Sequence record: OZ035810.1
Strand: one strand, 5' to 3'
Length of the DNA stretch: 64,000 bases
DNA from: Gamaleyavirus AN24P2
In this document: positions 30 to 31,999 of the stretch, in pieces
Position numbering within the stretch: the first letter of the stretch is position 1
Layout: every line of letters begins with the position of its first letter
Position numbers and translations under genes: made by a program
Notes under the pieces: model-generated
The model's input: the letters and a program-made list of their open reading frames with translations, nothing else
What the model was told of the DNA's origin: nothing
The model's database searches: none

Positions 30-719
30 ATGAGTGAACTAACTAAGCAGCAGATTGTTAATGCCCTACCTGCTAACTTCAAGAATAGTGTAACCCAGGA
101 ATTGGTGGACACAATTAACAACATAACCCAAGACCAACTGGTTGCTGAGTCCTTCCGTGAAAACTTTATCTCCTACTCTGGTGTAATGAAGGAGGGTAAG
201 TTTAAGACCCAGGACTACATGAATGCAGTTCAGTATGTGACTTACAAACACATGGGCTATTCCAATAAGGAAGCCTACTTCAAAACATTCCCTAACCGAC
301 AAGCAGAACTTGTGGCACGAGGAACCAGTGAAAAAGATATTAGTGCTTATGTATCTGCTTATCACAGAGGTAAGTTAGTTAACCTCATCATGGAACAAAG
401 TTTGGTTCCAGTGTGGATTGTGAACCAGGACAATTATCAGAAGGCAATCAATGTTCAGGTTGAACTAATGACCACAGCAGCAAGTGAAAAGGTAAGATGT
501 GATGCAGCTAACTCTATCCTTACTCACTTGGCTAAACCAAAAGACCAGGTAACGAATATCAATCTGGACTTGAGAGAGAACTCTGGATTGACCGACCTCA
601 AGGCAACACTTGCTGCATTAGCTGAACAGCAAATCAATGCAATCAATAGTGGAGTTCCTACTAAAGAGATTGCTGGTTCTAAACTAGTACGTGCAGATGA
701 GGACATTACAGATGTCTGA
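30..719 (+). CDS. hypothetical protein; possible terminase small subunit (directly upstream of and overlapping terL)
   Basis: 229-aa ORF with ATG at 30; stop overlaps the ATG at 712 of the terminase large subunit (ATGTCTGA). Function inferred from position only. Confidence 0.35.
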   Translation: MSELTKQQIVNALPANFKNSVTQELVDTINNITQDQLVAESFRENFISYSGVMKEGKFKTQDYMNAVQYVTYKHMGYSNKEAYFKTFPNRQAELVARGTSEKDISAYVSAYHRGKLVNLIMEQSLVPVWIVNQDNYQKAINVQVELMTTAASEKVRCDAANSILTHLAKPKDQVTNINLDLRENSGLTDLKATLAALAEQQINAINSGVPTKEIAGSKLVRADEDITDV

Positions 720-2301
720 GTTAATTAAGCAGGAACTTGATGAATGGCTGGACCAGGTAGACTACTCCTACCTTAATTCATCTAACTATGTTCCTAGTCA
801 GTTTGCTCTTACCTTTGCCAACTTTATTAAGTTGGTTAATGGCAAGGAAGGTGAATCCAACAAAACACCTCCAGTTCACTTGAAGATGCTGGATAAGATG
901 ATTAGTCCGAACCAGTATGTAGTTAATCTGTGTTTCCGTGGTGCAGGTAAGACTGCTGTGTTCATGGAATACTTTACTTTATTCCTGGCAGTGTTTGGTC
1001 ACTTGCCTAGTCTGGGTAAAGTAGAAGGAATGATTTACGTATCCGACTCAATGGATAACGGTGCTAAGTCTGCACGTAAGAACATTGAGTTTCGATACAA
1101 GAATAGTGAGTTCCTTCAGCAGTGGATACCTGAAGCTATCTTTACGGATAACCTGTTAGAGTTCCGTAATGCAGAAGGTCATCGACTGGGTGTTAAGTTA
1201 TTTGGTGCTAAGACCGGTCTTCGTGGTACGAAGATATATGGTAAGCGTCCTACACTTTGTATACTGGATGACCTGATTAGTGATAGTGATGCTAACTCTA
1301 AGACAAGCATGGAAGCCATTAAGGATACTGTCTATAAAGGGGTGAACCATGCTCTTGACCCTACCCGTCGTAAAGTAATTTTTAATGGTACTCCTTTTAA
1401 TAAGGAAGATATTATTATTGAAGCAGTTGAGTCCGGTGCATGGGATGTCAACGTATGGCCTGTATGTGAGAAGTTCCCTTGCAGTAGAGAAGAATTTCAG
1501 GGTGCATGGGATGACCGTTTCTCTTACGACTACATCAAAGCCCAATACGACATGGCAGTTAAGACCGGTAAGCTGGCAGGTTTCTATCAGGAACTTATGC
1601 TTCGTATTAGTTCTGAAGATGAACGACTTGTTCAGGATAGCGAAATTAAATGGTATAGCAGACAACAGCTACTAAGAATGAAGTCCTGCTACAACTATTA
1701 CATTACAACTGACTTTGCTACTTCGGAGAAACAGACCAGTGATTATAGTGTCATATCAGTTTGGGCTTATAGTTCTAATGGAGATTGGTTCTGGGTTGAT
1801 GGTGTGGCTAATCGTCAGCTTATGGATAAAAACTTTGATGACTTGTTCCGTCTGGTTCAGGAATACCAACCACAAAACGTTGGTGTCGAAATCACAGGGC
1901 AGCAGAATGGATTCATATCTCTTCTTCAGAAAGAAATGATTAATCGTAATGTCTTCTTTAACTTTGCAACCTCTGAGGGTGGTAAGCCAGGCATACGTCC
2001 TGTAACCTCTAAGCTGTCACGTTTTAACCTGGTAGTTCCCTGGTTCAAGGCTGGTAAGATGTACTTCCCGGAAGAGTTGAGAGATACAACTATTATGGGT
2101 CTGTTTATGGGCCAGATTAAACTAGCTACCATTAATGGAATAAAGGGTAAAGATGACTGTATTGATACCATCTCCATGCTGGGTTATCTCAATCCTTGGA
2201 AACCACAGGCAGGTATGACCATGGTGGATAACAAGGGTGATCCAATGTGGGATGATGAAGAGGAAGATAGCATTAATCCACTACGTTCATACATTGTGTG
2301 A
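712..2301 (+). CDS. terminase large subunit
   Basis: Walker A-like P-loop NLCFRGAGKTAV near the N-terminus and a C-terminal nuclease-like region. ORF-track start 691 is GTG; in-frame ATGs at 697 and 712, and 712 has a GAGGA RBS and overlaps the upstream stop. Confidence 0.75.
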   Translation: MSELIKQELDEWLDQVDYSYLNSSNYVPSQFALTFANFIKLVNGKEGESNKTPPVHLKMLDKMISPNQYVVNLCFRGAGKTAVFMEYFTLFLAVFGHLPSLGKVEGMIYVSDSMDNGAKSARKNIEFRYKNSEFLQQWIPEAIFTDNLLEFRNAEGHRLGVKLFGAKTGLRGTKIYGKRPTLCILDDLISDSDANSKTSMEAIKDTVYKGVNHALDPTRRKVIFNGTPFNKEDIIIEAVESGAWDVNVWPVCEKFPCSREEFQGAWDDRFSYDYIKAQYDMAVKTGKLAGFYQELMLRISSEDERLVQDSEIKWYSRQQLLRMKSCYNYYITTDFATSEKQTSDYSVISVWAYSSNGDWFWVDGVANRQLMDKNFDDLFRLVQEYQPQNVGVEITGQQNGFISLLQKEMINRNVFFNFATSEGGKPGIRPVTSKLSRFNLVVPWFKAGKMYFPEELRDTTIMGLFMGQIKLATINGIKGKDDCIDTISMLGYLNPWKPQAGMTMVDNKGDPMWDDEEEDSINPLRSYIV

Positions 2302-2307
2302 GGAAAC

Positions 2308-3015
2308 ATGATTAAGTTAACAGAGTTATATAAGAGTCTGGCTCTGTCTGTCTTGAATAACACCAGTGTGATAACTGATGACAAGAAAGACATTGAACCA
2401 GATAAAAAGGAATACATCCTTGAGTTTATTAATGAGGGACTAACTCGTTTACATGGACGGTTCCCATTAAAGACACGCAATGTATTCGTTGAAATGCGTG
2501 AGGGCAGAACTGAGTACCCTTTACTGGCTCGCTATTCCTTTACTGGATTTGACCCTACACTAGCACAGTACCCATACATTATGGATTCTGCTAGTAACCC
2601 TTTTAAGGAAGACGTTATTAAAATCCTGGTAGTGTATGATTCAAAAGGACACAGACGTGGGTTGAATGATAATCACAATCCGCATGGATTGTTTACTCCA
2701 CGTCCCGATACGTTACAGTGTATTCGTCCTCGTCATTGCGAAGTACTTACGGTAACCTATCAAGCGAAACACCCAACTGTTACTGTAGATGGTGAGGACC
2801 AGGAGATTGATTTACCTGATACCCTACTGCCTGCTTTAAAGTACTGGGTAGCATATAGTTACTACACTGGACTCAATACTGCCGAAAGTACTAGCAAAGC
2901 TACGGAGTATCTACAAATGTACGAATCAATATGTGGAGAGGTTAAGGATTACGACCTTGGAAGCAGCAGTGAGTCCAGTACCAATACACTATTTGAAATA
3001 AGAGGATGGATATGA
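2308..3015 (+). CDS. virion structural protein (N4 gp67-like by position)
   Basis: 235-aa ORF with AGGAAA RBS, between terminase and tail fibre genes. Confidence 0.4.
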   Translation: MIKLTELYKSLALSVLNNTSVITDDKKDIEPDKKEYILEFINEGLTRLHGRFPLKTRNVFVEMREGRTEYPLLARYSFTGFDPTLAQYPYIMDSASNPFKEDVIKILVVYDSKGHRRGLNDNHNPHGLFTPRPDTLQCIRPRHCEVLTVTYQAKHPTVTVDGEDQEIDLPDTLLPALKYWVAYSYYTGLNTAESTSKATEYLQMYESICGEVKDYDLGSSSESSTNTLFEIRGWI

Positions 3016-5282
3016 ATTCTCATAACCCATTTAATACGGGCAGTAACGGTTACTCCAATGACTTTTGTTCTGCTGACTCATTAGTAGATCGAATCATTGG
3101 GGATGCCTACCACGTAGTTAAGGAAGTTTACTTAGCACTGGATAACCTTACCTACATCTATAATTACCTACAGAAGTATGGCTTGATTATTACTGTAGAT
3201 AGTGAAGAGGCAATCAAGGATATCCCTTTATCAATTGGGAAGTTTGCTCGTGTCTACAATAAGTCTGAGTCAGTTGGTTACTACTTTACTGACTATCTTT
3301 ATGTAGATGATGATACCAGTGGCATTAGACCAAATGAACCAGGTGCTACTGGTTCTTGGGTTAGTACCAAAGCTACTGGTTCCAATGCCTCGTTTGTTCG
3401 CATTTGGAAATATCGGGCTAAGACTGATGGTGTTACGTCTATAAAGCTACCCACGGATGTTCCAATTGTTGGGGTGCAGACTATTTACGTGGAGGGGGTA
3501 AGACAGGATATCAATGAAGGTTTTTCCTACAATGAGGGTACTGCTACAATCACACTGGCTGACTCCTTAGAAGTTGGTAATCTGGTTACAGTTATTATAG
3601 GTGTAAATGACCCAGATATGGATGTGGATGTTTTCGCTATACTTAAGAATAGTGATGGTGCATCTAATATCGGTACTCAGTCTGGGGAAACTGTACAACA
3701 AGTTATCGACAGAAATTATGCGAATTTACGTGAGCATTGGCGTCGTCAACTTGCAGAAGCTGGCCTTAACCTTGTCGATGGTAGTTTTGAATACGGGGCT
3801 GAAGTGAGTACCCCCACGGATGCTGTTTGGTATATTGCTGAGGGTCAGTGCTATACGTGGGGGGGTTCACTGCCTAAATCTGTACCTGTAAATTCTAATC
3901 CAGAGAACTCTGGTGGAATTTCAGAAGACGGATGGAATAGTGTGACCTCTCAGTCAACACTGACGGTACTGGCTAAGTCTACTGGTGCACAGAAATCTGG
4001 GTATCGTTATAGTGATGTTTACTCCGTACTCTCCCGGTTTATGGCATACCAGGATCATAATATAGCTCAACCGGCACTAGGCCGTGATGAATCAACAAAC
4101 CAAACCATTTGGGATGCACAATCACAACTTGACTTAAAGCATCGTGGGGGTATTTTCGCAGGCAAGGAAACATATGGTATCCGTGAAAATTCTACCGTAG
4201 CATCATTCAGGGCTAACACAGGTACTGGTAGTGCATTTGTCCCTCAAGTAGCTGGAAGCGACGACCTTGCTGTGCTTGCACAAGCAGGTGCTATGGATAG
4301 CGTAGCTGTTTTCGCTGACACATGGTTAGGCGAATATAACTCATGGGAAGATATTGCTACAGCAAACTATACCGCAACTAGTTTTACCGTTAGCGATGCT
4401 TCATTGCTTGAAAAGGTGAAAGTTGGGCAATTTCTAATGACCAAACATTCATCTAGATATGTTGGCCTAGTAACTGGTATTTCAGGTGCTACTGTAACCG
4501 TCCAGAAGTGGGTTATTTATGGAACTTCAACAGTTGGAACGCCAGCTGATGGTGTCGGCTTATATGTAAACCCTGTTATAAAAGGCTGGGCAGTAAATGC
4601 TAATGTCCTTATAGGTCCCAACAGTAGAGCAGAGAAATGTGCATTATTTGAGTTTGGTCTTCAGAATAATGGAATACCTGATACTGCTCTCATTACTGGG
4701 GGGGACATAGTAGCTCTCAATGCGACTTATGGGGGTGGGGATGGTCTGCGAGTGAGAGGGACTTCAGCGACAGGAAGATGGACCAACGGTGTAAGTGCAT
4801 CTGGGGGTAGCTCTACAAATTTCCGGTCTTCTACAGGGCAAGGCCCTAGTAGTCTAGCTGCATTTTTAGAAGAGTCTGATTCTGCTACAGGGTTTCTTTT
4901 CAAGGGTAAGAACACTTCCCGATCAATTTCATGGCAGAATGCGTCTGGTGTTGAACAAGCTGCCTTAGCTCCTTATGGATTTGAGATTAAAGGTGGGAAG
5001 GGATTGAGTACCGCAGTGTCTGGAAATGCAGTCACTGCTGGTGGTAAGGTTGTAGTACAAAATTCATCGGCGTTTGCTTTAGTACTGCCGGACGCCAGTA
5101 ATTTCACGGCTGGTCGAGAGATTCACTTTATCGCTACTGGTGTTAGCCCTATCACTATTACTAGTGCACAACCAGGGGGTACTGTTAATGGTAACTCTAG
5201 CGTAATTATTACACCTACTTATGGCTTCTCAGAAATGACAGCTACATATGCAGGTGGTGGATTATGGTATGTTACAAGGTAA
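3006..5282 (+). CDS. tail fibre / appendage protein
   Basis: 758-aa protein rich in Gly/Ser/Thr, with an N-terminal ~150-aa region typical of a virion-attachment domain; precedes a second spike gene. Confidence 0.5.
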   Translation: MDMNSHNPFNTGSNGYSNDFCSADSLVDRIIGDAYHVVKEVYLALDNLTYIYNYLQKYGLIITVDSEEAIKDIPLSIGKFARVYNKSESVGYYFTDYLYVDDDTSGIRPNEPGATGSWVSTKATGSNASFVRIWKYRAKTDGVTSIKLPTDVPIVGVQTIYVEGVRQDINEGFSYNEGTATITLADSLEVGNLVTVIIGVNDPDMDVDVFAILKNSDGASNIGTQSGETVQQVIDRNYANLREHWRRQLAEAGLNLVDGSFEYGAEVSTPTDAVWYIAEGQCYTWGGSLPKSVPVNSNPENSGGISEDGWNSVTSQSTLTVLAKSTGAQKSGYRYSDVYSVLSRFMAYQDHNIAQPALGRDESTNQTIWDAQSQLDLKHRGGIFAGKETYGIRENSTVASFRANTGTGSAFVPQVAGSDDLAVLAQAGAMDSVAVFADTWLGEYNSWEDIATANYTATSFTVSDASLLEKVKVGQFLMTKHSSRYVGLVTGISGATVTVQKWVIYGTSTVGTPADGVGLYVNPVIKGWAVNANVLIGPNSRAEKCALFEFGLQNNGIPDTALITGGDIVALNATYGGGDGLRVRGTSATGRWTNGVSASGGSSTNFRSSTGQGPSSLAAFLEESDSATGFLFKGKNTSRSISWQNASGVEQAALAPYGFEIKGGKGLSTAVSGNAVTAGGKVVVQNSSAFALVLPDASNFTAGREIHFIATGVSPITITSAQPGGTVNGNSSVIITPTYGFSEMTATYAGGGLWYVTR

Positions 5283-5317
5283 TATTAACTCATAACTACC
5301 CAATTCATTATGAGCAA

Positions 5318-5341
5318 ACCCCCGCTTCGGCGGGGTATTTT
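5318..5341 (+). terminator. rho-independent terminator-like hairpin between the two tail fibre genes
   Basis: CCCCGC-TTCG-GCGGGG stem-loop followed by ATTTT. Confidence 0.4.
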
Positions 5342-5366
5342 AAAACTACAACATGAGGAATAACCC

Positions 5367-7670
5367 ATGAATAAGACTTTTACGCAGCCTACTGGCCCAG
5401 TGGCCAAGCAGACTAACAAACAAGCTATAGCTAGATTGCTTGGAATAAAAACAGCACAGGTAGGATATTTAAACACATCTACCCCTACTGAAGCATACTC
5501 TGTGCTATATGATGAAGTTTCACAGTTGCCTTTTTATAGGGGCAATGCTACGGGTACTCCTATTTCGTGGTTATACAATGCTACCCTGAATGTGCTGGAT
5601 ATAACAACTACAGCTGGGTCTTACTCATTAGTGTTGGCTAATAAAGTCATAGAGTTAAAAAATGACTTAGCATCTGAAGATGCAGGTAAAGGGGCTGATA
5701 CAATTAAAGTTCGCAAAGGCAGGGCAAGCGTTACACCCAGTCGCACAGTAGCAGAAATGCTTCTGGATGGTATGGCAGGTTTACGTAAAAACTTCGGAGC
5801 AATCGGTAATGGTATAGCTGATGATACTAACGCTATCAACGATATGTGGGAATGTATGTATGATGCATCCTACAAAAGATTTGGAGCACTTACTGATGAG
5901 GCAGCCATCGGTTTTATGCTTCAAAAAGGTCCAGCCTGCTTGGTTGAAAATGGGGTGTATGTCTACTCTGGTCCTGGTTTAACTTTACCTAGTGGTTCTG
6001 CATTTGTAATGAATATCCATGGTGAAAGCGCTCTTTCATCTAAGTTCCTTATTACCTCAGATGCTTATCTTTTTGATTTGGATAATAACCCAGTACATAG
6101 TTATTTGGGTAAATTAACTATCCATGGGGGAAGAGGGGCTGTACGAATGAAATCCAATGCCCGAACTACGGCGGGTATTCATCTATTTGAGCATCTACGC
6201 TTATCTCGTTTTAGTGAATGTGGTATCAGTAATAACTCCATAGATATGCCATACTTTCGTGTAAGGGATTCAATTTTTTATGGTGGCTTATCTTCCCAGG
6301 CTATCGGTGTTTGCGTATCAGGGTTATCCGCTGGGGGTTATATCAGGGATAACTTATTTTCTGATTTACGTTATGGAATTAAATTAGCTATTGGTCGCCA
6401 AGGTACTAGCGTAGTTAATGGACCGGCTACACCATATAATATTGAAGGTAACGATTTTTATCGTACCGGTAATCGTGGTGCCATAGACCCAGATACGCAA
6501 GAATTTGTTCAGTATGCATCTTATGATGTATGGATTGAACCAGGAGCTACTGCAACCAACTCTGGCCGTGCTATTAGATTTGCAGGCAATAAGTTTGGTC
6601 AGGAATACTTAGTATCCCCAGATTCGCATGTACTTATTGCAGATGCTGCTACCCTGGGTGCTACAGACTCCCTCAATGGGGATAAGGCCCATGTTGAGAC
6701 ACTAAGTACTGGATTTGTATCTGGTTTGCTTTTTGAGGGCAATAACGTTAATTCAGCCAATGGTTCTTATATTGCTCCCTTTATAAGGTCATTCACTCCT
6801 AACGTTGGTAACTGTTATGTTGGTGATTTATATGACAATGATATGCCATCCCGCATTATTGAATACTCACCGTTAGTAACCCAAGCATCGATTACTAATC
6901 TGGCTCGTACTAACATTTTTGCTCCTAAATCTTGTTTGGGTTTGCAAAAGGGTGTAGAGCCTAAGCTAATTTCTAACTTAAATGATGTATTCAAAGTTCT
7001 GGATACTAATAACTGGTACGCCGGGCATCCGCAAGTACCCACCCCATTGGTAGGTGCTCAGCAGTCTAACTTTGTGTCTCTGTATGCGGGACCAACTAGT
7101 GGGTTAACTGTGGCAGATGCTACTAAAACATCTGTTAATAACTCTTACGGAGGTGTATACGAAGCTTCTGAAATAACCCTGGCTTCGGGTGGGCGAGCTT
7201 ATACTGTTGTTTCTGGTATGGTAGCTGGGCAGCAACACTACATTGATTTTGAACTAAAACGCGGAAGCTCTAACCCAGTGCAGAGTGTTAAAGTTGAAAT
7301 TCTCAGCACAGATACTACAGTTCTGTACCTTCGCAGAATAATCCTTATCGATACAATCTCCCGGTGGCAAAGGGTAATATTACCATTTATCCCTTCGGTA
7401 TCTGGTCAAGTAATTGTAAGATTCACTTCTTCCACTTTTATCGAGGGCTCTGCTACTAACTTCATAGTAGGTAATCTTAATGTTTATATAAACAATAACC
7501 CCATCAATACAGGGCACAATGGTGGGTTAGGTGGAACTTGGTCTATTCAGCACACTGTGCGAGGTAATCGCCATGAATGGTATGATGCTTCAGGCAATTT
7601 ACGTGCTAAAGTAGGTGCCCCAACTTCAGCAACTGATGGAGTTATCATTAGTGCTAATCCTGTAATTTGA
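5367..7670 (+). CDS. tailspike protein with pectate-lyase-like beta-helix (putative polysaccharide depolymerase)
   Basis: 767-aa protein; motif NFGAIGNGIADDTNAINDMWE matches the N-terminal signature of pectate-lyase-3-type tailspikes (FGAxGDGxxDDTxAIQ); repetitive beta-rich composition. Confidence 0.6.
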   Translation: MNKTFTQPTGPVAKQTNKQAIARLLGIKTAQVGYLNTSTPTEAYSVLYDEVSQLPFYRGNATGTPISWLYNATLNVLDITTTAGSYSLVLANKVIELKNDLASEDAGKGADTIKVRKGRASVTPSRTVAEMLLDGMAGLRKNFGAIGNGIADDTNAINDMWECMYDASYKRFGALTDEAAIGFMLQKGPACLVENGVYVYSGPGLTLPSGSAFVMNIHGESALSSKFLITSDAYLFDLDNNPVHSYLGKLTIHGGRGAVRMKSNARTTAGIHLFEHLRLSRFSECGISNNSIDMPYFRVRDSIFYGGLSSQAIGVCVSGLSAGGYIRDNLFSDLRYGIKLAIGRQGTSVVNGPATPYNIEGNDFYRTGNRGAIDPDTQEFVQYASYDVWIEPGATATNSGRAIRFAGNKFGQEYLVSPDSHVLIADAATLGATDSLNGDKAHVETLSTGFVSGLLFEGNNVNSANGSYIAPFIRSFTPNVGNCYVGDLYDNDMPSRIIEYSPLVTQASITNLARTNIFAPKSCLGLQKGVEPKLISNLNDVFKVLDTNNWYAGHPQVPTPLVGAQQSNFVSLYAGPTSGLTVADATKTSVNNSYGGVYEASEITLASGGRAYTVVSGMVAGQQHYIDFELKRGSSNPVQSVKVEILSTDTTVLYLRRIILIDTISRWQRVILPFIPSVSGQVIVRFTSSTFIEGSATNFIVGNLNVYINNNPINTGHNGGLGGTWSIQHTVRGNRHEWYDASGNLRAKVGAPTSATDGVIISANPVI

Positions 7671-7677
7671 GGTGATT

Positions 7678-7932
7678 ATGGCTCTAAAATTTACTTTTGA
7701 CTTTAATGGTATTATGGTAACCGATGGGGTACTTACTGTAAGCAAACCCATGATTGATGAGGAATCTGGAACAATTACCTTTGGGCTACTGTTCCAAGCA
7801 ACTAGTGCAGACCCGCTACTGAAATCAGTAACGCTTAGTTGTCCCTATGATCCTTTTGGAGCTGACCCATTCACTCAGGCATACGCCTATATAAAATCCT
7901 TACCAGATTATAAATCTGCCGAGGAAATTTAA
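7678..7932 (+). CDS. small hypothetical protein downstream of tailspike (possible assembly chaperone)
   Basis: ORF-track start 7672 is GTG; ATG at 7678 has a GAGGTG RBS. Followed by a terminator. Confidence 0.35.
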   Translation: MALKFTFDFNGIMVTDGVLTVSKPMIDEESGTITFGLLFQATSADPLLKSVTLSCPYDPFGADPFTQAYAYIKSLPDYKSAEEI

Positions 7933-7958
7933 TAAAAGCCCCTTACGGGGCTTTTCTT
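7933..7958 (+). terminator. rho-independent terminator
   Basis: AAAAGCCCC-TTAC-GGGGCTTTT hairpin followed by CTTCT. Confidence 0.6.
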
Positions 7959-21577: not shown

Positions 21578-21640
21578 TACACTGGCTTACTGTAGAGTAA
21601 GCTTCTTATATACGATATAAGTTTGAACAGGAAACATGCT

Positions 21641-24600
21641 ATGTCAACATTTGACCGTCTGGCAGGTTTCGCAGACAGCATCACTAATGCTAAGCAAGTC
21701 GATGTCTCTACTGCTACCTCTCAGAAGCAAGCTGCACAAGGGCAAAGCCCTTTCCAATTAACCCCAGAGAATGCTTACAATCTCCAAACTGGACGAGTAG
21801 GTAATTTAGGAATCGGTGCGTTCGAACCAGGTTCCCTCCAAGCTGATTTCACTCAGGCTTCCCCATTAGAAATTCTTAATAAATATGGTAATGAGCAAGG
21901 TCTACAGATTCTTAATAGCCGAGCTAATGCTGCTGATGCTGTACGTCAGGACTTATCTAAACAACGTACTAACGCAGAAGCATTTGGTGATACTCTTTCT
22001 GGTGTTGGTCTTGGTGTTGCTAATACCCTGGGGGGCATTGCTGCTCTTGGCACAGGTTTGGTCAATGATAATGCCGGGGCATCCATTGCTTCCGGGATGG
22101 ATTGGTTGAATGAAGGTGTGCACAATCTCCAGTCTGATGCACTGAATGTTACCCGTAAGGTTGTTCAGAATCAGAACCAGATTTCTGCTCAAAAGAACCA
22201 GAAACTTTACGAACAAGACATCAAAAATGGGGAGAGCAGCTTGGTTGCCTCCCTGTCTCGCATTGGTCGTGATGCTTTTGATTCTGTTGCTAATACACTT
22301 GATAACGGTATGGCTGCTACTGATGGGCTAAGTGAAGGTGTTGGTTCCCTCTTTACTGGTGGTCCACTTATCCGTGGTGTATCTGCACTCGGCAAAGTAA
22401 TGGTAGGTGGTGATAAAGCCGTTAAGGGTATTACCTTAGCTGCTGAGTTAGGTTCTCGTCCTGCACAGGTTGCATTGTCTGCTGGTCGTGTTGCTGCACC
22501 TGCTATTGCAATTGGTGGTATGGAAGCTGGTGGTGCATACCAACAGACTGCTTCTGAAATCATGAAGATGTCACATCAAGAATTAGCAAGTAAGTCTCCT
22601 GTTTATCAACAACATATTGCTGATGGTTTATCTCCTGATGAAGCTCGTCGTCAGACTGCATCTGAAACAGGTATCATTGCTGCTGGCTTAACTGCTCCGG
22701 TTGCTGCTGCTACTGGTCCACTGGTATCTAAATTTGAACTTAATCCACTTAAGGTAGGTTCACTGGTTGGTGCTGGTTCTAACATGCTGCGTGAAACTGT
22801 AGAAGAAGGTATCCAGTCTGGTACTAGTCAGTTTGCACAGAACAAAGCAATTCAAGGTAATGTAGATGCTAAACGTGACTTGCTTAAAGGTGTTGGTGAA
22901 CAAGCAGGTCTTGGTGCACTTTACGGCTTCGGTAGTGCTGGGGTTGCTCAAGCTCCAGGTGCAACTGTTAAAGCTGTTGGTGCTACTGCTGGTCCAGCCC
23001 TTCGTACTACTTTAGCCGGTGCTTCCCTGGTTGGTAGTGCACTAGCAAAAGCTGCATCTCCTCTTACTAACATCCTGGTTCAACGTGGTGAAGAAGTTGC
23101 TAAACGAAATGAACAAGCATCCCCTGTAGCTGATGCTACGGTTAATGCTGCTGCACAGGAAGCTGCTGCTCAGGCAGAACAAGCACAAGCAACTGTACAG
23201 GAAGCAGTAGATGCAATGGATATTTCTCCGGAAGAGAAAGCTGCTGCTACCCAGTATGCTGCTGACTTAACTCAGGCAATGAAGTTTGACCCGGTAGAAT
23301 TGGAACAAACTAACCCAGCAATCCGTGAAGCTGTTTCTGGTTCCACTAACCGTGTTGAAGCTATTCAGAAGATGGCTGACCTGGTTAATACTGCTGAGGA
23401 TCCTAACGTTCAAATGGAAGCTGCAATCCAGATGTATGACAATATCATGTCTATGGATAGCTTCATTAACCGTGACCCGGGTGCTCTGGCTAATCTGGAA
23501 CAAGGTTCTCCTGCTGCTGCGATTGTAGACCAGTTCTCCGGTCTGATGGCTAACGTACAGAATACTCCGAAGGTACTCCGTGCATTTCGTGCCATCCATT
23601 CCATGATTCAGGAACAGGCTGAAGCGGGTAAATTGAAAGCTACTGAAGAAGCTAACCAAGCTCAGGCAAACAACATTGCTATGGCTGCTGATGTGTCTCC
23701 AGAAGTTCTGGATGTAGAATCAGTGAACATGGTTCTGAAGCACGCAAGTGAAGGTAAGATTACATTAGGGAATCGTCAGCGTGCTGCCCTGCAATCTGCT
23801 GCTGCTCTATTGCAAGGAGCACGAGAATTTGACGCTAAAGCAGAAGAACTGGGCTTACGTCCTCAAGACATTGTTAGTAAACAAATTAAAACCGACGAAT
23901 CTCGTTCTAATGAAGGCCAGTACTCTGCGTTGCAACATGCTAAACGCATTCGTTCTGCGTACAACTCTGGTAACTTCGATTTGGCTTCCGCTTATCTCGA
24001 CGACTTTATGAAGTTCGCCCAGCACATGCAGAATAAGGTCGGAGCGTTGAATGAGCATTTGATTTCTGGGAATGCGGATAAGAATAAGTCTGTCCATTAT
24101 CAGGCTCTTACTCCCTCCCGTGAATGGGTACGTAGTCGTACTGGCCTCGGTGTCAATCCGTATGATACCAAGTCTGTTAAGTTTGCCCAGCAAGTAGGAC
24201 TGGAGGCCAAAACCGTAGCTGATATTGTTAATGCACTTGCTACGGCTTACCCGGAGCTTAATGTTTCTCATGTTAAAGTTACTCCATTAGATTCACGTCT
24301 GGACAAGCCTGCTGCCCAGGTGGTTAAAGAGTTCCGTCAGGGCAATCTTGATGCTGCTCAATCCCAACAGACCAATGAACCAGTGAATCAGGTTGATGAA
24401 ACTCCTGTTACAAAACAGGAACCAGTTACCCCTACTGTACAGACTAAACCCTCTGTTAGTGAAGCTGTTAAAACAGAACCTACTATTAAAGAGTCTAAAC
24501 CACAGTCTGTAAAAGAACCTGAGAACCAGTCCGAAAAGCAGGATGCTGCCATCACTAATGAGGATACCACTCAGGAAGTAGCTGAAACTAAAACGGAAAT

Positions 24601-27600
24601 GGAAGCAGTGTTCCCTGTCTATAACAATGACAAGACACCGAGCCAGTTCCTTAAAGCATTTGCTCTGCCGGAAGAACCTAAGACTCGTACCATTGGTTCT
24701 GAATCTCCTTTGACTGATGTTAAGCAAGCACTGTCTTCTGCTGCTCGCTTTGAAGCATTCACACAAAAAGAAAATAACGCTCTCACAAGTGATGTGATGA
24801 AACGTTATCAGGACTTACTGGGCTTTGGTGAAACTCTGAAGACTACTCTTTCTGACCGTCTGGCTAAGTTCCTTGCTAACAAAAATGTTGGTAAACGTTT
24901 TGCAGAAGGTACTGAAGCTAACCGTTGGGTAGGTGGTAAACTGCTGAATATCGTTGAACAAGACGGTGACACCTTTAAGTTCAATGACCAGTTGTTAGAG
25001 ACTGCTGTACTTGCTGGTCTGCAATGGCGACTAACTGCTACACAGAATGCTGCTGTTAAAGACATGAAAGACATAGCTGCTATTACTGGTGTAGAAGCAT
25101 CCCTGTTACCTGAAGGTATTCTGGCTGAATTTGAGAATGCTCAGACTCTGGTTGAAGCTACTAGCTCACTGGCTCAAAAGATTGAATCCTACTGGGGTTT
25201 GAATCGTAATCCTAATGCACCACTGGGCTATACCAAGGGTATCCCAATGGCAATGGCTACAGAGATTCTGTCTTCCCTTATTGAGATGGGTGAAGTTAAA
25301 GAGTCTATGCTGGATGTGTCTGAAATTGACCCAGCCTCCGATAAGACTGTAGGTCTGTACACCATTGAGAAGCTGGATGATAACGATGCCATTAACAATT
25401 TCCCTACTGCTATTGAGGAAGCTGTCCTCGTAGAACCAGAAGAGAAAATGTACTTTGGTGATGATATTCCTTCCGTGGCTCAAACTCAGTTACGTAATCC
25501 GGCTGTTAAGAATACCCCTGAACAGAAAGCTGCTCTTAAAGCAGAACAGGCTACTGAGTTCCGTGTACACATGCCTATGGTTAACTTCTATGAAGCATTA
25601 GGTCGTGACAACATTCTGGAACTGATGGGTGCTGGTACGCTTAATCCTGAACTACTGAACGTAAACACTGCTAAATCACTGGAAGGTAAGAACCTGTCAG
25701 TGTCTATGGCATATGATTCCTTGTTTGGGGTAATCAATCAGGTTCAGGAACAGGAGAATGGACTGGATACTCCTATTCACTATGGTTATAACATGACCCG
25801 TGTAGGTCGTATGCAGATGCTTGGTAAGAATAACCCACAATCCAGTAAGCTGGTGCGTGAAGCAATTCTGCCAACCTTCTCTACTATTGACTTGAGTAAT
25901 GAAAACAGCCAAACGTTCTCAGACTTCCAGTTAGGTCTGGCTCAGGCATTAGGCATCAAGGTACATAACATGTCCCGTGAAGCTATGTCTGAAAAGCTGA
26001 CTAAAGCTCTGGAAGGTAACCTGAAACCTGCTGTTGATATGATGGTTGAGTTTGATAAGTCTGGTCACTTACCAGTTGATGCAGTGGATATTCTGAAGAC
26101 GTCTCTTGGTGGCGATAAATCCTTCGTAGCTCTTATGGCTCTTATGGAATATGCCCGTTACCTGAACAGTGATGACCGTGCCAACTTTAATACCCCACTG
26201 TACGTTGAAGCCGATGGTGTAACTAACGGACCAATCAACGCAATGGTATTAATGACGGGTGGTAAGTTCACTTCAGACTGGGTTAAGAATACTGCTAAAG
26301 GTGGTCTGTTCTTTGGTAAAGCTGGTAAGACTATGAATGAACACCGTTCACAGGATGACAGTGTTGACTTGTATGAAGCATCTACCAACAGTCTGCAACA
26401 AGCTCTGAATGAGTTACGTACTACTTACCGTAACAACGTTCCGGTTATGAACCAGATGAATCATCTCCAAAAGTTAATGGACCTGTTCATTAAAGACTTT
26501 AACCTGAACGAAGACGGTACTCTGGACCTGAAGCGTGGTATCGCTAAAAACCCACTGACTATTACCATCTATGGTTCCGGTGCTCGTGGTATTGCAGGCA
26601 AGATGGTTAGTGCAATTACTGATACCATCTATGAACGCTTCAGTGACGTTCTGCAAGCTCGCGCTGCTGACCCTAGCATTTCCCCAGCTATGGCAATGTT
26701 TGGTAAAGAGGCTGCGTCTGAGACTGATGCTCAGGCTATGCTGGATACTTTCCTTACATCTATGGAAGCACTGACTGGTAATGTTCCAGTTATGCGTAAA
26801 GGTGAGCTGTCTATTCAACAAGTAGAAGGTGCTCTGACTGGTAAGTTAGACCCCCAGAAGTTTACTGTATCTGGTAATGCTCTGAAGAACCTGCAAGAGA
26901 ACATGCTTCACTTGTTCGTTGAACCAATGCGTACTGGTATTCGAAATACTGTTGGTGAAGGTCTAATGCACTCTACTGAGAACTTGCAGAAGGCTACCCA
27001 GATTCAGTCTCTGGTATTGCAAGACATGTTCCAGCAAGCAGTACAGACTAAGCTGGCAGAAAAAGAAAAAGACCCAACATGGAAGAAGGGTGATTTCTTA
27101 ACTCAGAAAGAACTGAACGAAATCCAGGAATCATTGTCTCCACTGGCTCCAATGATTGAGACTGGTTCGCAGACTTTCTACATTGCTGGTAGTGAGAATA
27201 CTGACGTTGCTAACCAAGTACTGGCTACCAACTTAGATGACCGTATGCGTGTGCCAATGAGCATCTATGCTCCTTCACAGGCAGGTGTTGCAGGTATTCC
27301 ATTTATGACCATTGGTACTGGCGATGGCATGATGATGCAGACCCTTTCTACTATGAAAGGTGCTCCGAAGAATACCCTGAAAATCTTTGATGGTATGAAC
27401 ATTGGTATCAATGACATCACTGATGCAAGTCGTAAAGCTAACGAGGCTGTATATACTTCCTGGCAGGGGAATCCTATCAAGAATGTTTATGACTCCTTTG
27501 CTAAGTTCATGAAGAACGTAGACTTCAGCAAACTGTCCGATGAAACTAAACAGGCTATCGCTAAGTCTGCTTTGGAATATGACCAGCGTGAGGGTGCTAC

Positions 27601-30600
27601 TGATGCCTTATTACGTGCAGGTGCTGAACAGATTGAGCGTAACTTGCGTAACATTGCTCTTGGTGTAGATATTCGCCATAAAGTAATGAACCAGGTACAG
27701 ACTACTGTTGACCAGATGGCTGCTGTAGGTGCTCCTTATGTGAACAACGGTAAAATCTCTCTGGAAGGTCTGACTGTAGACCAGCAAGTAGCTAAGCTGA
27801 ACGAATTGTTTGATGCTGAATTAAACAAACGTCGTGATGCAGTACGTGCTGCTAAAGCAGAACCAGTGAAAGAAGTACCAGCAATTGAGCAGGTTGGTCG
27901 TGTACTGAAGTCTGGTGTACGTCTGCTGTCTAATACTGCTATCTCTAAGCTGGCTAAAGAGATGTCTCAGGAACAACAAGCAGTACTGAAAGAAGTACAG
28001 AAATCCCCTGCTGCTAAAGACTACAAGGTTGTCTATGGTACACCTGCCCAACTGGATGCTTACGCTATTGAGAAGAACATTACTCGCCCAGCACCGGAAG
28101 ATATTGAAGCTGCTGAAGCAGGTAATGCATACGGCTGGACTAACTTCGAAGATAAGACCATTTATCTAGTTACCCCTTCCTTAGAAACTCTGGTTCATGA
28201 ATTGGTACATGCTTCTACTTTTGAATCTGTACTGACTCACTATGAAGGTACTCCTAATGAAGCAGTTCAGAACATTGAAGACCTGATGAACCAGTTCCGT
28301 GCTCTGGATGTTAAGGATGAATCTCCGGCAGTACGTGAAGCGTATGCTGATGCACTTAATACCATTAATGGTCACTTGTCCAATGGATTCATTGAGCCAT
28401 CAATGGCTAAAGCTGCTGCACTTAACGAGTACATGGCTTGGGGCTTAACCAACCGTGAACTGATTAGTAAGCAGAAGAAAACCACTGCACTTAAGACTAT
28501 GGTTCAGGCTGTGTATGAAGCAATCAAGCGTCTGGTATTTGGGCGTAAGAAAGCACCAGCTAATGCAGATGATATGTTCTCCGGCTTACTGTTTAACTCT
28601 GCTGTAGTAATGCGAGGACAAGCTCCTACTGCTGCTGTAGCTAAAGATACTACCCTGTTCCATAACAAAGCATACGGTGATAATACTCGTCTGGAAGAAT
28701 TAGGAAAAACCTTCGATAAGTTAATTACTGACTACATTGGTTCAGAACCAGTACAACAAGTAATTCGTAAAGGTAAGTTCTCTGATGCAGTAGTGAATGC
28801 AACTAAAGTAACCCGTGATGTTCAGGCTCATGGCTTCGCTATGAATATGCAGGAACAGCGTCTCTTTACTAACATTGTTGCTGCTCTGGCTACTGAGGCT
28901 GCTATTAACCCTGCTGCTTTGGCTCGTGCACAGGAATACTACACGCATGTTACTAAGAACCTGACTGTTGAAGCATTTATGGCTGACCCAGATAGTACTA
29001 ACCCTGCTGACCGTTATTACGCTCAACAGAAGTTCGATACCATCATGGGTGCTAACAATATTGAGTTTGATGCACAGGGACGTTCTTCCTTACTGCCTAC
29101 CTTTGTTGGGCTGGCAATGGTAAGTGAAGAAGTACGTAAGGTACTGGCTGATATTCCTGTTATGAAAGCAGATAAGCAATCCGGTAATACAGTTGATGCA
29201 ATGCTGACTAACATTGGTACTGCTGCAATGGCTAGTCTGAATGCTCGTGTAGCAGGTGATACCAAAGCTACTAATGTACAGGAAGGTATGGATGCACTGG
29301 CTCAAACAATCATGCAGACTAGCCTTAATGCACAGTCCTTTTATGATTCTGTTGCTACTCCTAGTGGTAATGCTATTGACCGTGCTAACCAGTATCTGGT
29401 GGACTCTATTGATGTATTGTCTACCCGTGCTTTAGAAGGTGCTCGTGAAGTTGCAGCTAATACCAAGAACCCGTTGGTTAAAGGTGCTGCTCATGCTGCA
29501 CAACTGATTGCTGCTATTGCTACAGAGAAGAATGGTGAAATCGTAGCCGAAGGAGTTATGGCTGCAATGAACCAGGGTAAGGTATGGCAACCTTTCCATG
29601 ACCTGGTTAATGACTTAACTGGTCGTACTAAGAGCAATGCTTCTGTGTATGATTTGATTAAGGCAGTTCGTGCACAGGTACAGGCTGACCGTCAACAATT
29701 CCGTGAACATTTGCCTACTACTATCGCATCTAAGTTCAGCCGTAAGCTGACTAATGATGAGTGGAAAGCAATGCACACTGGCATGGGTAAAACTGACTTG
29801 GCTGTCCTGCGTGACACTATGTCTTTGGCTGAAATCCGTGATTTGCTGTCGGACCAAAAGATTGTTGACCGTGAAGTGAATAAGCTGGAAGCAGATTTGC
29901 AGAAGCAAGCTGGACGTAACTGGCCTCTGATTAGTCGTAAATCTAAGCAACTGGCTCAGTTTATGATTAATGGTACAGTTGGTAATAACTTGCTGCGTAA
30001 TGCTACTGCAATTTCTCGTTTACTGGGTGAACGTAAGACTACTAGTTCTATTGTAGATGTAGCTAAACTGGATAAACTGATTACCCTGTATGCACTGGAA
30101 GCAATGAGTAATACTGACCGTGAGATGCTATCTTCACTGGCTCAAACAGAAGTTGATGGGATTGATTTTGCTACTTCTTACCTGGTTGGTCAGCGTAAAG
30201 ATGAAATGGCTAAAGCTAAGTCTGACATGCGTGCAACCCTGAACCAGTACAAAGGTTACATTCCTGGTGAGACTAAACAAGGTGTTAACCTGATTGTTGC
30301 TGAAGACAGTCAATTTGCTGATTTGATTGAGAAGTCCTATGTGCGACTGGGTACTTATCAGGGTAGCTCTGCTAATCGTGGTCCAGCACGTAGTTACTAC
30401 TTTGCACCAGTACAGGCACAGGCTCCATTCTCACAGGGTATCTTACAGAACGTTCGTAATACTGCTGGTGGTGTAGACCTTGGTACAGGCTTTACGATGG
30501 GTACAATGGTAGCTGGTCGTATCACTGACAAGCCTTCCGTAGACCGTATCACTAAAGCACTGGCTCGTGGTGAACGTGGTAATGAACCACTGCTGCCTGT

Positions 30601-31999
30601 GTATGATGACAAAGGTAATGTAGTTGCCTATGAGCAATCTATTGACCCTAACATGCTGAAGCACATTGAGGGTGAGAACCATCTTGCTCGTGCAATTGGT
30701 GTATGGCGTGGTCGTCAGGTAGAGGAAGCTAAGGCCCAGCGTTTCAACGATATGCTGATTGAAAATCTGCATAGCATGTACGAGAACGACATTAAAATGT
30801 CTGCCTCTAATAAGTCCCAGTATGTGAACCTTCTTGGTTCTAAACTGGACCCAGTAACTGCTGATGCTCTTAAACTGATGAACACTGAAACACGTCAGAA
30901 AGCAGAAAGCCTGTTTGGACCCGGTGAACTGTGGGTTCGTCGTGATATGCTGAATGATGCACTAGGCTATCGTGCAGCTTCTGTAGGTGATGCCTGGTCT
31001 GGCAATTCTCGTTGGTCCCCAGAAACACTGGATACCTTCAAGAAAGCTATGTTAGGTGTATTTGGCAACCGTGCTTACAAGTACGTAATGGGTGGTGAGA
31101 ACCTGGTTCAGAACTTAGTTAAAGAAGCTAAGACTCTGATTGTAGTTAAGTCAGTAGTTGTACCTGCTGTTAACTTCTTAGCTAACCTTTACCAGATGGT
31201 TGGTCGTGGTGTACCTGTTAAGAACATTGCTAAGAGCATTCCACAGAAGACTGCTGAGATTAACCAGTACCTGAAATCTCGTCTGCGTCAGGTAGATGCA
31301 GAAGCAGAATTACGAGCAGCTACTAATCCGAACCAGATTCGTAAACTTAAAGCTGAGATTCAGTCCATTACTGATAGTCATAAGCGTATGAGTATCTGGC
31401 CTCTATTAGAAGCTGGGGAGTTCTCTTCAATTGCAGATGCTGGTATTGGACGTGATGATATCCTGATTACTGAGGGTAAACTCCATGAATACATGGATAA
31501 GCTGGCTGATAAGTTACCTAAGTCAGTACGTACTGCTGGTCGTTATGCACTTATCACTAAGGATACTGCTTTGTTCCAGGGTATCCAGAAAACGGTTGAG
31601 TACTCTGACTTTATCGCTAAAGCAATCATCTATGATGACTTAACTCAGCGTAAAGGTAAGACACGTGAAGAAGCACTTGGACGTGTAACTGAAGAGTTCA
31701 TTAACTATGACCGTCTGCCGGGACGTTTCCGTGGCTATATGGAAAGTGTTGGTCTTATGTGGTTCTACAACTTTAAGATTCGTTCTGCAAAAGTTGCAGT
31801 GTCCATGATTCGTAATAACCCGGTCCATGCAGCAATGGCGATGTTGGCTCCAACTCCTACCATGTTTGGTAACGTTGGCTTACCTATTCAGGACAACATC
31901 TTTAGCATTGCTGCTAAGGATAGTCTGGATTACTCTTGGGGCTTTGGACAAGGGCTTCGTGCTCACAACCTGAACCCTTGGATGAACCTGGTAAACTAA
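21641..31999 (+). CDS. virion-encapsidated RNA polymerase (vRNAP, N4 gp50-like)
   Basis: Single uninterrupted ORF of about 3,452 aa from the ATG at 21641 (ORF-track start 21623 is TTG); size and position match N4 vRNAP; AGGAAA RBS. Confidence 0.8.
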   Translation: MSTFDRLAGFADSITNAKQVDVSTATSQKQAAQGQSPFQLTPENAYNLQTGRVGNLGIGAFEPGSLQADFTQASPLEILNKYGNEQGLQILNSRANAADAVRQDLSKQRTNAEAFGDTLSGVGLGVANTLGGIAALGTGLVNDNAGASIASGMDWLNEGVHNLQSDALNVTRKVVQNQNQISAQKNQKLYEQDIKNGESSLVASLSRIGRDAFDSVANTLDNGMAATDGLSEGVGSLFTGGPLIRGVSALGKVMVGGDKAVKGITLAAELGSRPAQVALSAGRVAAPAIAIGGMEAGGAYQQTASEIMKMSHQELASKSPVYQQHIADGLSPDEARRQTASETGIIAAGLTAPVAAATGPLVSKFELNPLKVGSLVGAGSNMLRETVEEGIQSGTSQFAQNKAIQGNVDAKRDLLKGVGEQAGLGALYGFGSAGVAQAPGATVKAVGATAGPALRTTLAGASLVGSALAKAASPLTNILVQRGEEVAKRNEQASPVADATVNAAAQEAAAQAEQAQATVQEAVDAMDISPEEKAAATQYAADLTQAMKFDPVELEQTNPAIREAVSGSTNRVEAIQKMADLVNTAEDPNVQMEAAIQMYDNIMSMDSFINRDPGALANLEQGSPAAAIVDQFSGLMANVQNTPKVLRAFRAIHSMIQEQAEAGKLKATEEANQAQANNIAMAADVSPEVLDVESVNMVLKHASEGKITLGNRQRAALQSAAALLQGAREFDAKAEELGLRPQDIVSKQIKTDESRSNEGQYSALQHAKRIRSAYNSGNFDLASAYLDDFMKFAQHMQNKVGALNEHLISGNADKNKSVHYQALTPSREWVRSRTGLGVNPYDTKSVKFAQQVGLEAKTVADIVNALATAYPELNVSHVKVTPLDSRLDKPAAQVVKEFRQGNLDAAQSQQTNEPVNQVDETPVTKQEPVTPTVQTKPSVSEAVKTEPTIKESKPQSVKEPENQSEKQDAAITNEDTTQEVAETKTEMEAVFPVYNNDKTPSQFLKAFALPEEPKTRTIGSESPLTDVKQALSSAARFEAFTQKENNALTSDVMKRYQDLLGFGETLKTTLSDRLAKFLANKNVGKRFAEGTEANRWVGGKLLNIVEQDGDTFKFNDQLLETAVLAGLQWRLTATQNAAVKDMKDIAAITGVEASLLPEGILAEFENAQTLVEATSSLAQKIESYWGLNRNPNAPLGYTKGIPMAMATEILSSLIEMGEVKESMLDVSEIDPASDKTVGLYTIEKLDDNDAINNFPTAIEEAVLVEPEEKMYFGDDIPSVAQTQLRNPAVKNTPEQKAALKAEQATEFRVHMPMVNFYEALGRDNILELMGAGTLNPELLNVNTAKSLEGKNLSVSMAYDSLFGVINQVQEQENGLDTPIHYGYNMTRVGRMQMLGKNNPQSSKLVREAILPTFSTIDLSNENSQTFSDFQLGLAQALGIKVHNMSREAMSEKLTKALEGNLKPAVDMMVEFDKSGHLPVDAVDILKTSLGGDKSFVALMALMEYARYLNSDDRANFNTPLYVEADGVTNGPINAMVLMTGGKFTSDWVKNTAKGGLFFGKAGKTMNEHRSQDDSVDLYEASTNSLQQALNELRTTYRNNVPVMNQMNHLQKLMDLFIKDFNLNEDGTLDLKRGIAKNPLTITIYGSGARGIAGKMVSAITDTIYERFSDVLQARAADPSISPAMAMFGKEAASETDAQAMLDTFLTSMEALTGNVPVMRKGELSIQQVEGALTGKLDPQKFTVSGNALKNLQENMLHLFVEPMRTGIRNTVGEGLMHSTENLQKATQIQSLVLQDMFQQAVQTKLAEKEKDPTWKKGDFLTQKELNEIQESLSPLAPMIETGSQTFYIAGSENTDVANQVLATNLDDRMRVPMSIYAPSQAGVAGIPFMTIGTGDGMMMQTLSTMKGAPKNTLKIFDGMNIGINDITDASRKANEAVYTSWQGNPIKNVYDSFAKFMKNVDFSKLSDETKQAIAKSALEYDQREGATDALLRAGAEQIERNLRNIALGVDIRHKVMNQVQTTVDQMAAVGAPYVNNGKISLEGLTVDQQVAKLNELFDAELNKRRDAVRAAKAEPVKEVPAIEQVGRVLKSGVRLLSNTAISKLAKEMSQEQQAVLKEVQKSPAAKDYKVVYGTPAQLDAYAIEKNITRPAPEDIEAAEAGNAYGWTNFEDKTIYLVTPSLETLVHELVHASTFESVLTHYEGTPNEAVQNIEDLMNQFRALDVKDESPAVREAYADALNTINGHLSNGFIEPSMAKAAALNEYMAWGLTNRELISKQKKTTALKTMVQAVYEAIKRLVFGRKKAPANADDMFSGLLFNSAVVMRGQAPTAAVAKDTTLFHNKAYGDNTRLEELGKTFDKLITDYIGSEPVQQVIRKGKFSDAVVNATKVTRDVQAHGFAMNMQEQRLFTNIVAALATEAAINPAALARAQEYYTHVTKNLTVEAFMADPDSTNPADRYYAQQKFDTIMGANNIEFDAQGRSSLLPTFVGLAMVSEEVRKVLADIPVMKADKQSGNTVDAMLTNIGTAAMASLNARVAGDTKATNVQEGMDALAQTIMQTSLNAQSFYDSVATPSGNAIDRANQYLVDSIDVLSTRALEGAREVAANTKNPLVKGAAHAAQLIAAIATEKNGEIVAEGVMAAMNQGKVWQPFHDLVNDLTGRTKSNASVYDLIKAVRAQVQADRQQFREHLPTTIASKFSRKLTNDEWKAMHTGMGKTDLAVLRDTMSLAEIRDLLSDQKIVDREVNKLEADLQKQAGRNWPLISRKSKQLAQFMINGTVGNNLLRNATAISRLLGERKTTSSIVDVAKLDKLITLYALEAMSNTDREMLSSLAQTEVDGIDFATSYLVGQRKDEMAKAKSDMRATLNQYKGYIPGETKQGVNLIVAEDSQFADLIEKSYVRLGTYQGSSANRGPARSYYFAPVQAQAPFSQGILQNVRNTAGGVDLGTGFTMGTMVAGRITDKPSVDRITKALARGERGNEPLLPVYDDKGNVVAYEQSIDPNMLKHIEGENHLARAIGVWRGRQVEEAKAQRFNDMLIENLHSMYENDIKMSASNKSQYVNLLGSKLDPVTADALKLMNTETRQKAESLFGPGELWVRRDMLNDALGYRAASVGDAWSGNSRWSPETLDTFKKAMLGVFGNRAYKYVMGGENLVQNLVKEAKTLIVVKSVVVPAVNFLANLYQMVGRGVPVKNIAKSIPQKTAEINQYLKSRLRQVDAEAELRAATNPNQIRKLKAEIQSITDSHKRMSIWPLLEAGEFSSIADAGIGRDDILITEGKLHEYMDKLADKLPKSVRTAGRYALITKDTALFQGIQKTVEYSDFIAKAIIYDDLTQRKGKTREEALGRVTEEFINYDRLPGRFRGYMESVGLMWFYNFKIRSAKVAVSMIRNNPVHAAMAMLAPTPTMFGNVGLPIQDNIFSIAAKDSLDYSWGFGQGLRAHNLNPWMNLVN

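Follow-up and report, generated by a model that had tools for sequence, protein, structure and literature searches.

Two large tail genes that follow one another in the genome of Gamaleyavirus AN24P2 raise the question of which proteins of the phage recognise the host surface: whether one of them serves for attachment to the virion and the other for contact with the cell, or both carry a receptor-binding domain of their own. The genes were studied in a window of 64,000 nucleotides from the record OZ035810.1 (by the window the whole analysed stretch of DNA is meant), where the original prediction, made from the letters alone, had placed two consecutive genes of tail fibres or spikes at 3006-7670. 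Both open reading frames (ORFs) were found at these coordinates on the + strand, namely ORF 1 at 3006-5282 (758 amino acids, aa) and ORF 2 at 5367-7670 (767 aa), hereafter RBP1 and RBP2 for receptor-binding proteins (RBPs) 1 and 2. Each protein has many homologues, and the two ORFs are genuine genes and not chance reading frames. The locus in all likelihood encodes a branched two-tailspike complex of the type of phage G7C, in which two glycan-recognising spikes would set the host range and the receptor-binding domains would be exchangeable cassettes. The window is 100% identical to OZ035740.1 (Gamaleyavirus AN24P2, 71,225 bp), a record without annotation in which the 4.7-kb two-gene stretch has unchanged coordinates; this stretch is 88.8% identical to Escherichia phage 24-32N, in which the counterpart of RBP1 is annotated as "tailspike protein" (Gp76) and that of RBP2 as "tail fiber protein" (Gp75); no literature on AN24P2 itself was found.

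The AF2 model of RBP2, obtained with 62 sequences, has a mean predicted local distance difference test score (pLDDT) of 85 and resolves the protein into a small anchor (aa 17-100, with values of 77-91 for aa 21-90), a low-confidence linker, a ladder of short strands at aa ~190-500, and a sandwich of long strands at aa 581-708. The closest structural matches of the model are the pectin-lyase-fold glycanases, lyases and phage tailspikes, and the central domain is predicted with good confidence to be a right-handed parallel beta-helix, so that the structure prediction suggested as a check of this fold came out in its favour. The pectate-lyase-type motif GDG..DDT (NFGAIGNGIADDTNAI) occupies aa 142-157, where the helix begins, and it is by this motif alone that the family profile matches the pectin-lyase-like PDB chains (E ~1e-3). 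The beta-helix signature had been attributed to the N-terminus of the 767-aa protein, which is right as to the fold but not as to its place, since the first ~97 residues form a docking anchor. It is this anchor region only (aa 1-~100) that is matched by PHROG 22037 and 12 other tail families, as well as by such PDB entries as CBA120 TSP1 (4oj5, E 2.7e-8), B2 gp48 (9d84_A, E 3.3e-6), G7C gp63.1 (4qnl, E 1.1e-5) and CBA120 TSP3, all within the first ~100 residues; about 40 proteins share with RBP2 only aa 1-~90/110, their bodies being unrelated. At the opposite end, the long antiparallel strands of aa 581-708 are modelled at a pLDDT above 90 and resemble, in the Foldseek comparison, the carbohydrate-binding modules (CBMs) of the CBM4 family (1gui, TMt 0.59; 3p6b, 0.58) and a hyaluronan-binding module (4d0q).

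The beta-helix domain is, from this model, the probable glycan-binding and glycan-cleaving part of RBP2. Of the readings that depart from this one, the best surviving takes the beta-helix for an adhesin-like spike that binds the glycan reversibly and without catalysis. The conservation at 50-60% family identity leaves too many invariant residues to single out catalytic ones. The binding-only reading is rather unlikely: the closest structural matches are mostly active glycanases, lyases and tailspike depolymerases, and the acidic and basic helix residues D293, D363, D387, E413, K339, R366 and K409 are invariant among 53 homologues, across proteins of 50-60% identity. Most of the beta-helix tailspikes that have been characterised from enterobacterial phages are enzymes, which also speaks against a binding-only function.

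The 758-aa protein upstream had been proposed as the virion-attachment adaptor, and its N-terminal third agrees with such a role. RBP1 aa 3-197 match PHROG 12242, a "tail protein" family (E 6.7e-51), and in the PDB the N-terminus is matched by Moo19 gp82 (9d80_D, aa 1-197, E 5e-42) and B2 gp49 (9d83_D, aa 23-204, E 2e-34), while the profile positions 127-201 resemble the gp10-like domains in the N-terminal fragment of CBA120 TSP4 (7rej, 1-335) and the family profile also matches Kp9 gp42 (7xy1). About 30 proteins, many of them on contigs of ~72 kb, are 74-86% identical to RBP1 over aa 3-~232 and have unrelated C-termini. The following segment, aa ~231-330, is modelled by AF2 at a pLDDT of 82-92 and contains the Pfam domain PF18668 (Tail_spike_N) at aa 260-314 (E 3.6e-10, 40.2 bits versus the cut-off of 25); many matches of RBP1 are confined to aa ~213-345, and 152 nucleotides (nt) of the Tail_spike_N region have 88.8% identity with Klebsiella phage KP13-26, a member of Stephanstirmvirinae with a genome of 144 kb. 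By these homologies, the segment is a piece of a branching platform which is common to Ackermannviridae-like and other large phages. As to the start of RBP1, ATG 3012 is likelier than ATG 3006, which opens the longest ORF, and would give 756 aa instead of 758; the start is probably at ATG 3012 because the Shine-Dalgarno sequence AAGAGG stands 6 nt upstream of it, its ATGA overlaps the stop codon of the adaptor gene, and the homologues of RBP1 begin with MNSHNPF.

The remaining 428 residues of RBP1 are related to the tailspike depolymerase Solidus_gp83 of Acinetobacter phage Solidus (PDB 24qj). A phmmer search gave E 2.7e-14 for the domain, the profile of its 42-member family gave E 1e-88 over the chain residues 36-484, and the homology covers RBP1 aa ~394-754 at ~25-30% identity; Foldseek found the same entry at E 5e-15 with a template modelling (TM) score of 0.18-0.26, the monomer model of the domain being poor. 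An exhaustive search for the domain returned 291 cluster representatives at E<=1e-3, with five invariant columns (P513, N531, E549, D567 and G658), of which two, E549 and D567, recur in 24qj. The Pfam matches among the members of this family are to anchors or extra domains, not to the C-terminal domain itself. In the tail proteins of Klebsiella quasipneumoniae prophages, RBP1 aa 331-758 recur at 78% identity, with a breakpoint exactly at aa 331. The domain is probably a depolymerase that would act enzymatically on a target glycan. RBP1 is, therefore, in all likelihood a branching adaptor and at the same time a second receptor-binding protein, so that the phage carries two RBPs.

The competing reading in which RBP1 serves for attachment only and takes no part in receptor recognition, RBP2 alone determining the host range, is very improbable. 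Its basis is that RBP1 does have virion-binding and docking domains and that an adaptor-only homologue exists, namely the 410-aa B2 gp49, the partner of the tailspike gp48. However, RBP1 is 758 aa long, and almost the whole chain of a depolymerase is covered by the homology of its aa 331-758; the same C-terminal domain recurs in tail proteins of phages and prophages that have other anchors, including anchors of the RBP2 type (P0109 and P0110, see below), and the published descriptions of Gamaleyavirus (PMC10408124, PMC11640937) place a receptor-binding region in each of both proteins. The proposal of an adaptor was accordingly right about the N-terminus and the docking domains of the 758-aa protein but too narrow for the protein as a whole, and the structural head-to-tail adaptor is a separate 235-aa gene at 2308-3015.

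Horizontal exchange, which had been considered likely for this module, is clearly supported by its mosaic homology. With respect to the Klebsiella oxytoca phage BaqKoxi, the backbone genes are 73-79% identical, whereas the block that begins with the intergenic hairpin and takes in RBP2 and the gene downstream of it (orf84, 84 aa) is 95-97% identical, and the receptor-binding domain of RBP1 is unrelated. With respect to 24-32N, the backbone is 92-94% identical and the adaptor with RBP1 77-84%. At the protein level, the homology breaks sharply, in RBP1 at aa ~232 and at aa 331, and in RBP2 at aa ~81-97. Tail proteins encoded by prophages of Klebsiella, Raoultella and E. coli share 50-61% identity with RBP2 aa 97-767, and the RBP2 domain also occurs, at 50-60% identity, in records of Kagunavirus, Vectrevirus and Ulipvirus, in several phages of ~41 kb, and in one Klebsiella phage of 252 kb and one Acinetobacter phage. 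The module is thus clearly mosaic and, as far as these homologies indicate, horizontally exchanged. The compositional comparison that had been suggested as a further line of evidence gave no signal of transfer: the guanine-plus-cytosine content (GC), its value at third codon positions (GC3) and the tetranucleotide distance of both genes are within the normal spread of the genome. In two metagenomic proteins (P0109 and P0110), an anchor of the RBP2 type (~46-52% identical) is joined to a receptor-binding domain of the RBP1 type (64-71%), and therefore the same domain would be mountable at either branch position. Klebsiella phage YC1 (OR493421.1, 252 kb) encodes at 236050-243843, within ~8 kb, an RBP1-type domain (31% identical) together with an RBP2-type one (53%).

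The arrangement of the complex may be pictured from the homologous systems as follows. RBP1 would be a homotrimer, whose N-terminal ~70-200 residues bind the tail around the ring of the 235-aa adaptor, with the gp10-like and Tail_spike_N domains forming a side platform and the C-terminal 428 residues the first receptor-binding domain, probably enzymatic and of the Solidus_gp83 type. The trimers of RBP2 would dock on this platform through the ~96-residue anchor, presenting the beta-helix and the CBM-like sandwich, and most likely would bind, and cleave or modify, an O-antigen or a capsular polysaccharide on hosts of the Escherichia/Klebsiella type. Each virion would then display two different glycan-recognising spikes, from which its host range would result, and the cassettes following each anchor may have been gained by recombination at the conserved ends of the anchors and at a terminator-like intergenic motif. 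Gamaleyaviruses have been described as having such a branched pair of RBP1 and RBP2, whose receptor-binding domains can be exchanged (PMC10408124; PMC11640937), and a complex of gp48 and gp49 of B2 was obtained by co-purification and its structure solved (PMC11654681).

Several points weigh against the full form of this picture. The AF2 monomer of RBP1 reaches a pLDDT of only 61 overall and falls below 50 for aa 372-449 and 524-666, and the fold of its C-terminal part is taken from the sequence homology to 24qj because the monomer prediction is poor; no literature was found on the Acinetobacter phages Solidus and Belisarius, and no paper on 24qj. The receptor-binding domain of RBP1 has no Pfam or NCBIfam model, and RBP2 has no Pfam or NCBIfam match at E<=0.1, including the beta-helix families PF12708, PF13229 and PF27114. 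With no such match for either domain, the catalytic class of the RBPs may be hydrolase, lyase or none. The record of AN24P2 names no host, and near-identical copies of RBP2 come from phages that were isolated on E. coli as well as on K. oxytoca, so that they do not point to a single target glycan; the contact between RBP1 and RBP2 is derived from the homologous systems.

Among the known systems, the closest is phage G7C, with its virion-bound gp66 and the esterase tailspike gp63.1 (4qnl), which agrees with AN24P2 in its genome, at the level of the genus, and in the layout of the two genes; its gp66 and gp63.1 correspond to the Gamaleyavirus RBP1 and RBP2 of PMC10408124, where phage IME11 is not treated. 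The N-terminus and Tail_spike_N domain of RBP1 are homologous to the gp66-like proteins (P0165-type, 1063 aa: 36% identity for aa 3-198 and 62% for aa 242-319), which have ~180 residues between the anchor and Tail_spike_N that RBP1 lacks, and the N-terminus of gp63.1 is homologous to the anchor of RBP2. The AN24P2 module differs from that of G7C in the Solidus_gp83-type domain of RBP1 and in the beta-helix with the CBM-like sandwich that RBP2 has in place of the SGNH esterase. That RBP2 might, like gp63.1, be an SGNH esterase that deacetylates the O-antigen without cleaving the chain, as could be thought from the homology of the anchors, the same position of the gene in a phage of the same genus and the esterase nature of the Moo19 and B2 spikes, is hardly credible and was rejected, for the homology to gp63.1 ends at RBP2 residue ~90, the body is a predicted beta-helix and not an SGNH fold, and neither RBP1 nor RBP2 is matched by the SGNH/GDSL families PF13472 and PF00657 (lipase_GDSL) in the Pfam search, whereas other RBP2-type proteins in the match list carry PF13472.

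The Shigella phages Moo19 and B2 (PDB 9d80-9d84; PMC11654681) are related through the N-terminus of RBP1, homologous to gp82 and gp49, respectively, and through the RBP2 anchor, homologous to gp48. Of the solved structures, the B2 gp48/gp49 complex offers the nearest template for the docking of RBP2 on RBP1. However, B2 gp49 is a pure adaptor with no receptor-binding domain, which RBP1 possesses, and the spikes of both phages are esterases resembling G7C gp63.1, unlike the beta-helix of RBP2. In the TSP1-4 complex of the Kuttervirus CBA120 (4oj5, 5w6f, 5w6h, 6w4q, 7rej), the N-termini of TSP1 and TSP3 resemble the RBP2 anchor, the gp10-like and Tail_spike_N domains of TSP4 and TSP2 resemble those of RBP1, and TSP2 and TSP4 are structurally close to the RBP2 beta-helix at a sequence identity of only ~10%, but CBA120 is a myovirus and bears four spikes on its baseplate. 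Solidus gp83 (24qj, released in 2026) keeps the Glu and Asp of the family and differs from RBP1 in its anchor and in the genus of the host. Two further proteins are 60% identical to RBP2 aa 97-767, the tail spike of the Kagunavirus RP180 of Raoultella and a protein of Acinetobacter phage LAPP1 annotated as "endo-N-neuraminidase", but they have siphovirus-type or other anchors, and their records show no demonstrated substrate. The module is, therefore, a typical Gamaleyavirus branched two-tailspike complex with two recognisable receptor-binding domains, unsurprising to a specialist, and involves no new principle, the branched RBP1/RBP2 design, the anchors and the cassette exchange having been already published for the genus. 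It would determine the strains to which this phage can adsorb, and its two receptor-binding domains with clean exchange boundaries (RBP1 aa ~331, RBP2 aa ~97) may be useful for the prediction of host range and for spike engineering on a Gamaleyavirus chassis. The coordinates of the features are collected in Table 1.

Table 1. Features of the tailspike module of Gamaleyavirus AN24P2 and of its surroundings (positions in the window, unless a homologous locus is named)
Feature	Coordinates	Strand	Remark
TerL	691-2301		adjoins adaptor gene
Head-to-tail adaptor, 235 aa	2308..3015	+	Pfam, PHROG and PDB matches
RBP1 aa 1-~230	3006..3695	+	putative virion-binding anchor and first gp10-like beta domains
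RBP1 aa ~231-330	3696..3995	+	Tail_spike_N (TSP1/gp66-type) domain with the preceding helix
RBP1 aa 331-758	3996..5282	+	428-aa receptor-binding domain, probable depolymerase of the Solidus_gp83 type
Hairpin terminator and RBP2 ribosome-binding site	5320..5366	+	terminator scan and sequence
RBP2 aa 1-~96	5367..5654	+	anchor, would dock RBP2 onto RBP1
RBP2 aa ~97-568	5655..7070	+	linker and predicted right-handed parallel beta-helix (pectin-lyase fold)
RBP2 aa ~569-767	7071..7670	+	C-terminal beta-sandwich, CBM-like
orf84, 84 aa	7678..7932 (ATG; listed as GTG ORF 7672-7932)	+	moves with the RBP2 domain
Terminator hairpin, GC-rich	7934-7955		after the RBP2-orf84 pair
3458-aa ORF	21623-31999	+	listed with TTG start
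orf84 homologues	L007:5684-5938, L010:5450-5704, L005:4001-4255, L004:4001-4264, L006:3980-4240

Between the two RBP genes, a GC-rich hairpin CCCCGCTTCGGCGGGG followed by a T-run is located at 5320-5345, after RBP1. The 47-nt element that comprises it and the RBP2 ribosome-binding site shares 95.7% identity with KP13-26 (L003:5947-5993), 89% with BaqKoxi and 95% with 24-32N. A conserved terminator-like "motif three" downstream of the RBP genes has been proposed as a recombination joint (PMC10408124); the element at 5320-5366 appears to match this motif and is a candidate recombination joint kept across phage genera. The copy in KP13-26 likewise sits between two large genes.

The structural head-to-tail adaptor is recognisable by homology in the third gene of the attachment chain, a ring protein encoded outside the 3006-7670 interval of the original prediction. 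It is matched by Pfam SU10_adaptor (E 2.8e-10) and PHROG 2125 (E 3.6e-87), and in the PDB by Moo19 gp83 (9d80_B, E 1.8e-96, over the full length), the 30 kDa protein of N4 (9lc0_J, E 8.8e-83) and the head-to-tail adaptor gp50 of B2 (E 1.3e-30). In the tail machines of Moo19 and B2, the adaptor ring was modelled together with the tailspike N-terminal residues 10-74, the portal and the tail tube (PMC11654681). It was also observed that the reduced identity to 24-32N covers the adaptor and RBP1 together, the genes flanking them remaining at 92-94%. It appears that the adaptor was exchanged jointly with the RBP1 anchor that would bind it, or that the two diverged together.

The gene orf84 is 95-97% identical in nucleotides to BaqKoxi jointly with RBP2, in flanks of 73-79%. 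An 84-aa homologue follows the homologues of the RBP2 domain by 7 nt in E. coli and K. quasipneumoniae prophages, another stands directly after such a homologue in Acinetobacter phage LAPP1, and remoter ones were found after other tailspike genes in the phages PDP46 and Bullseye. A word-indexed search with orf84 gave two close clusters only; the invariant residues of the protein include a YD..G......QA motif, and there was no Pfam, PHROG function or PDB match to it. Downstream of the 60%-identical tail spike of RP180 there is no orf84, and the gene is, therefore, not obligatory for the RBP2 domain, by which an earlier considered role of an obligate chaperone is weakened; a C-terminal motif in common with the PDP46 tail fibre was set aside as weakly supported, at 7.9 bits. 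It is a tentative and somewhat doubtful suggestion that orf84 represents an undescribed spike-cassette family, distributed over podo-, sipho- and myovirus-like phages and the prophages of Escherichia, Klebsiella and Acinetobacter and acting in trans as a partner of the spike, and that the C-terminal domain of RBP1 represents a depolymerase family missing from Pfam, with ~290 representatives and the residues Glu549/Asp567. As such a partner, orf84 would be, for example, a helper of folding or trimerisation or a cap for the C-terminal sandwich.

The genes of the window follow in the order of small and large terminase, the 235-aa adaptor, RBP1, RBP2, a small ORF, lysis genes and portal; the succession terminase-adaptor-RBP1-RBP2-lysis-portal agrees with that of 24-32N, and the genomic context reads as that of an N4-like podovirus with the G7C-type layout. 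The 3458-aa ORF further downstream is presumably, by its size and position only, the giant virion RNA polymerase of the N4-like phages.

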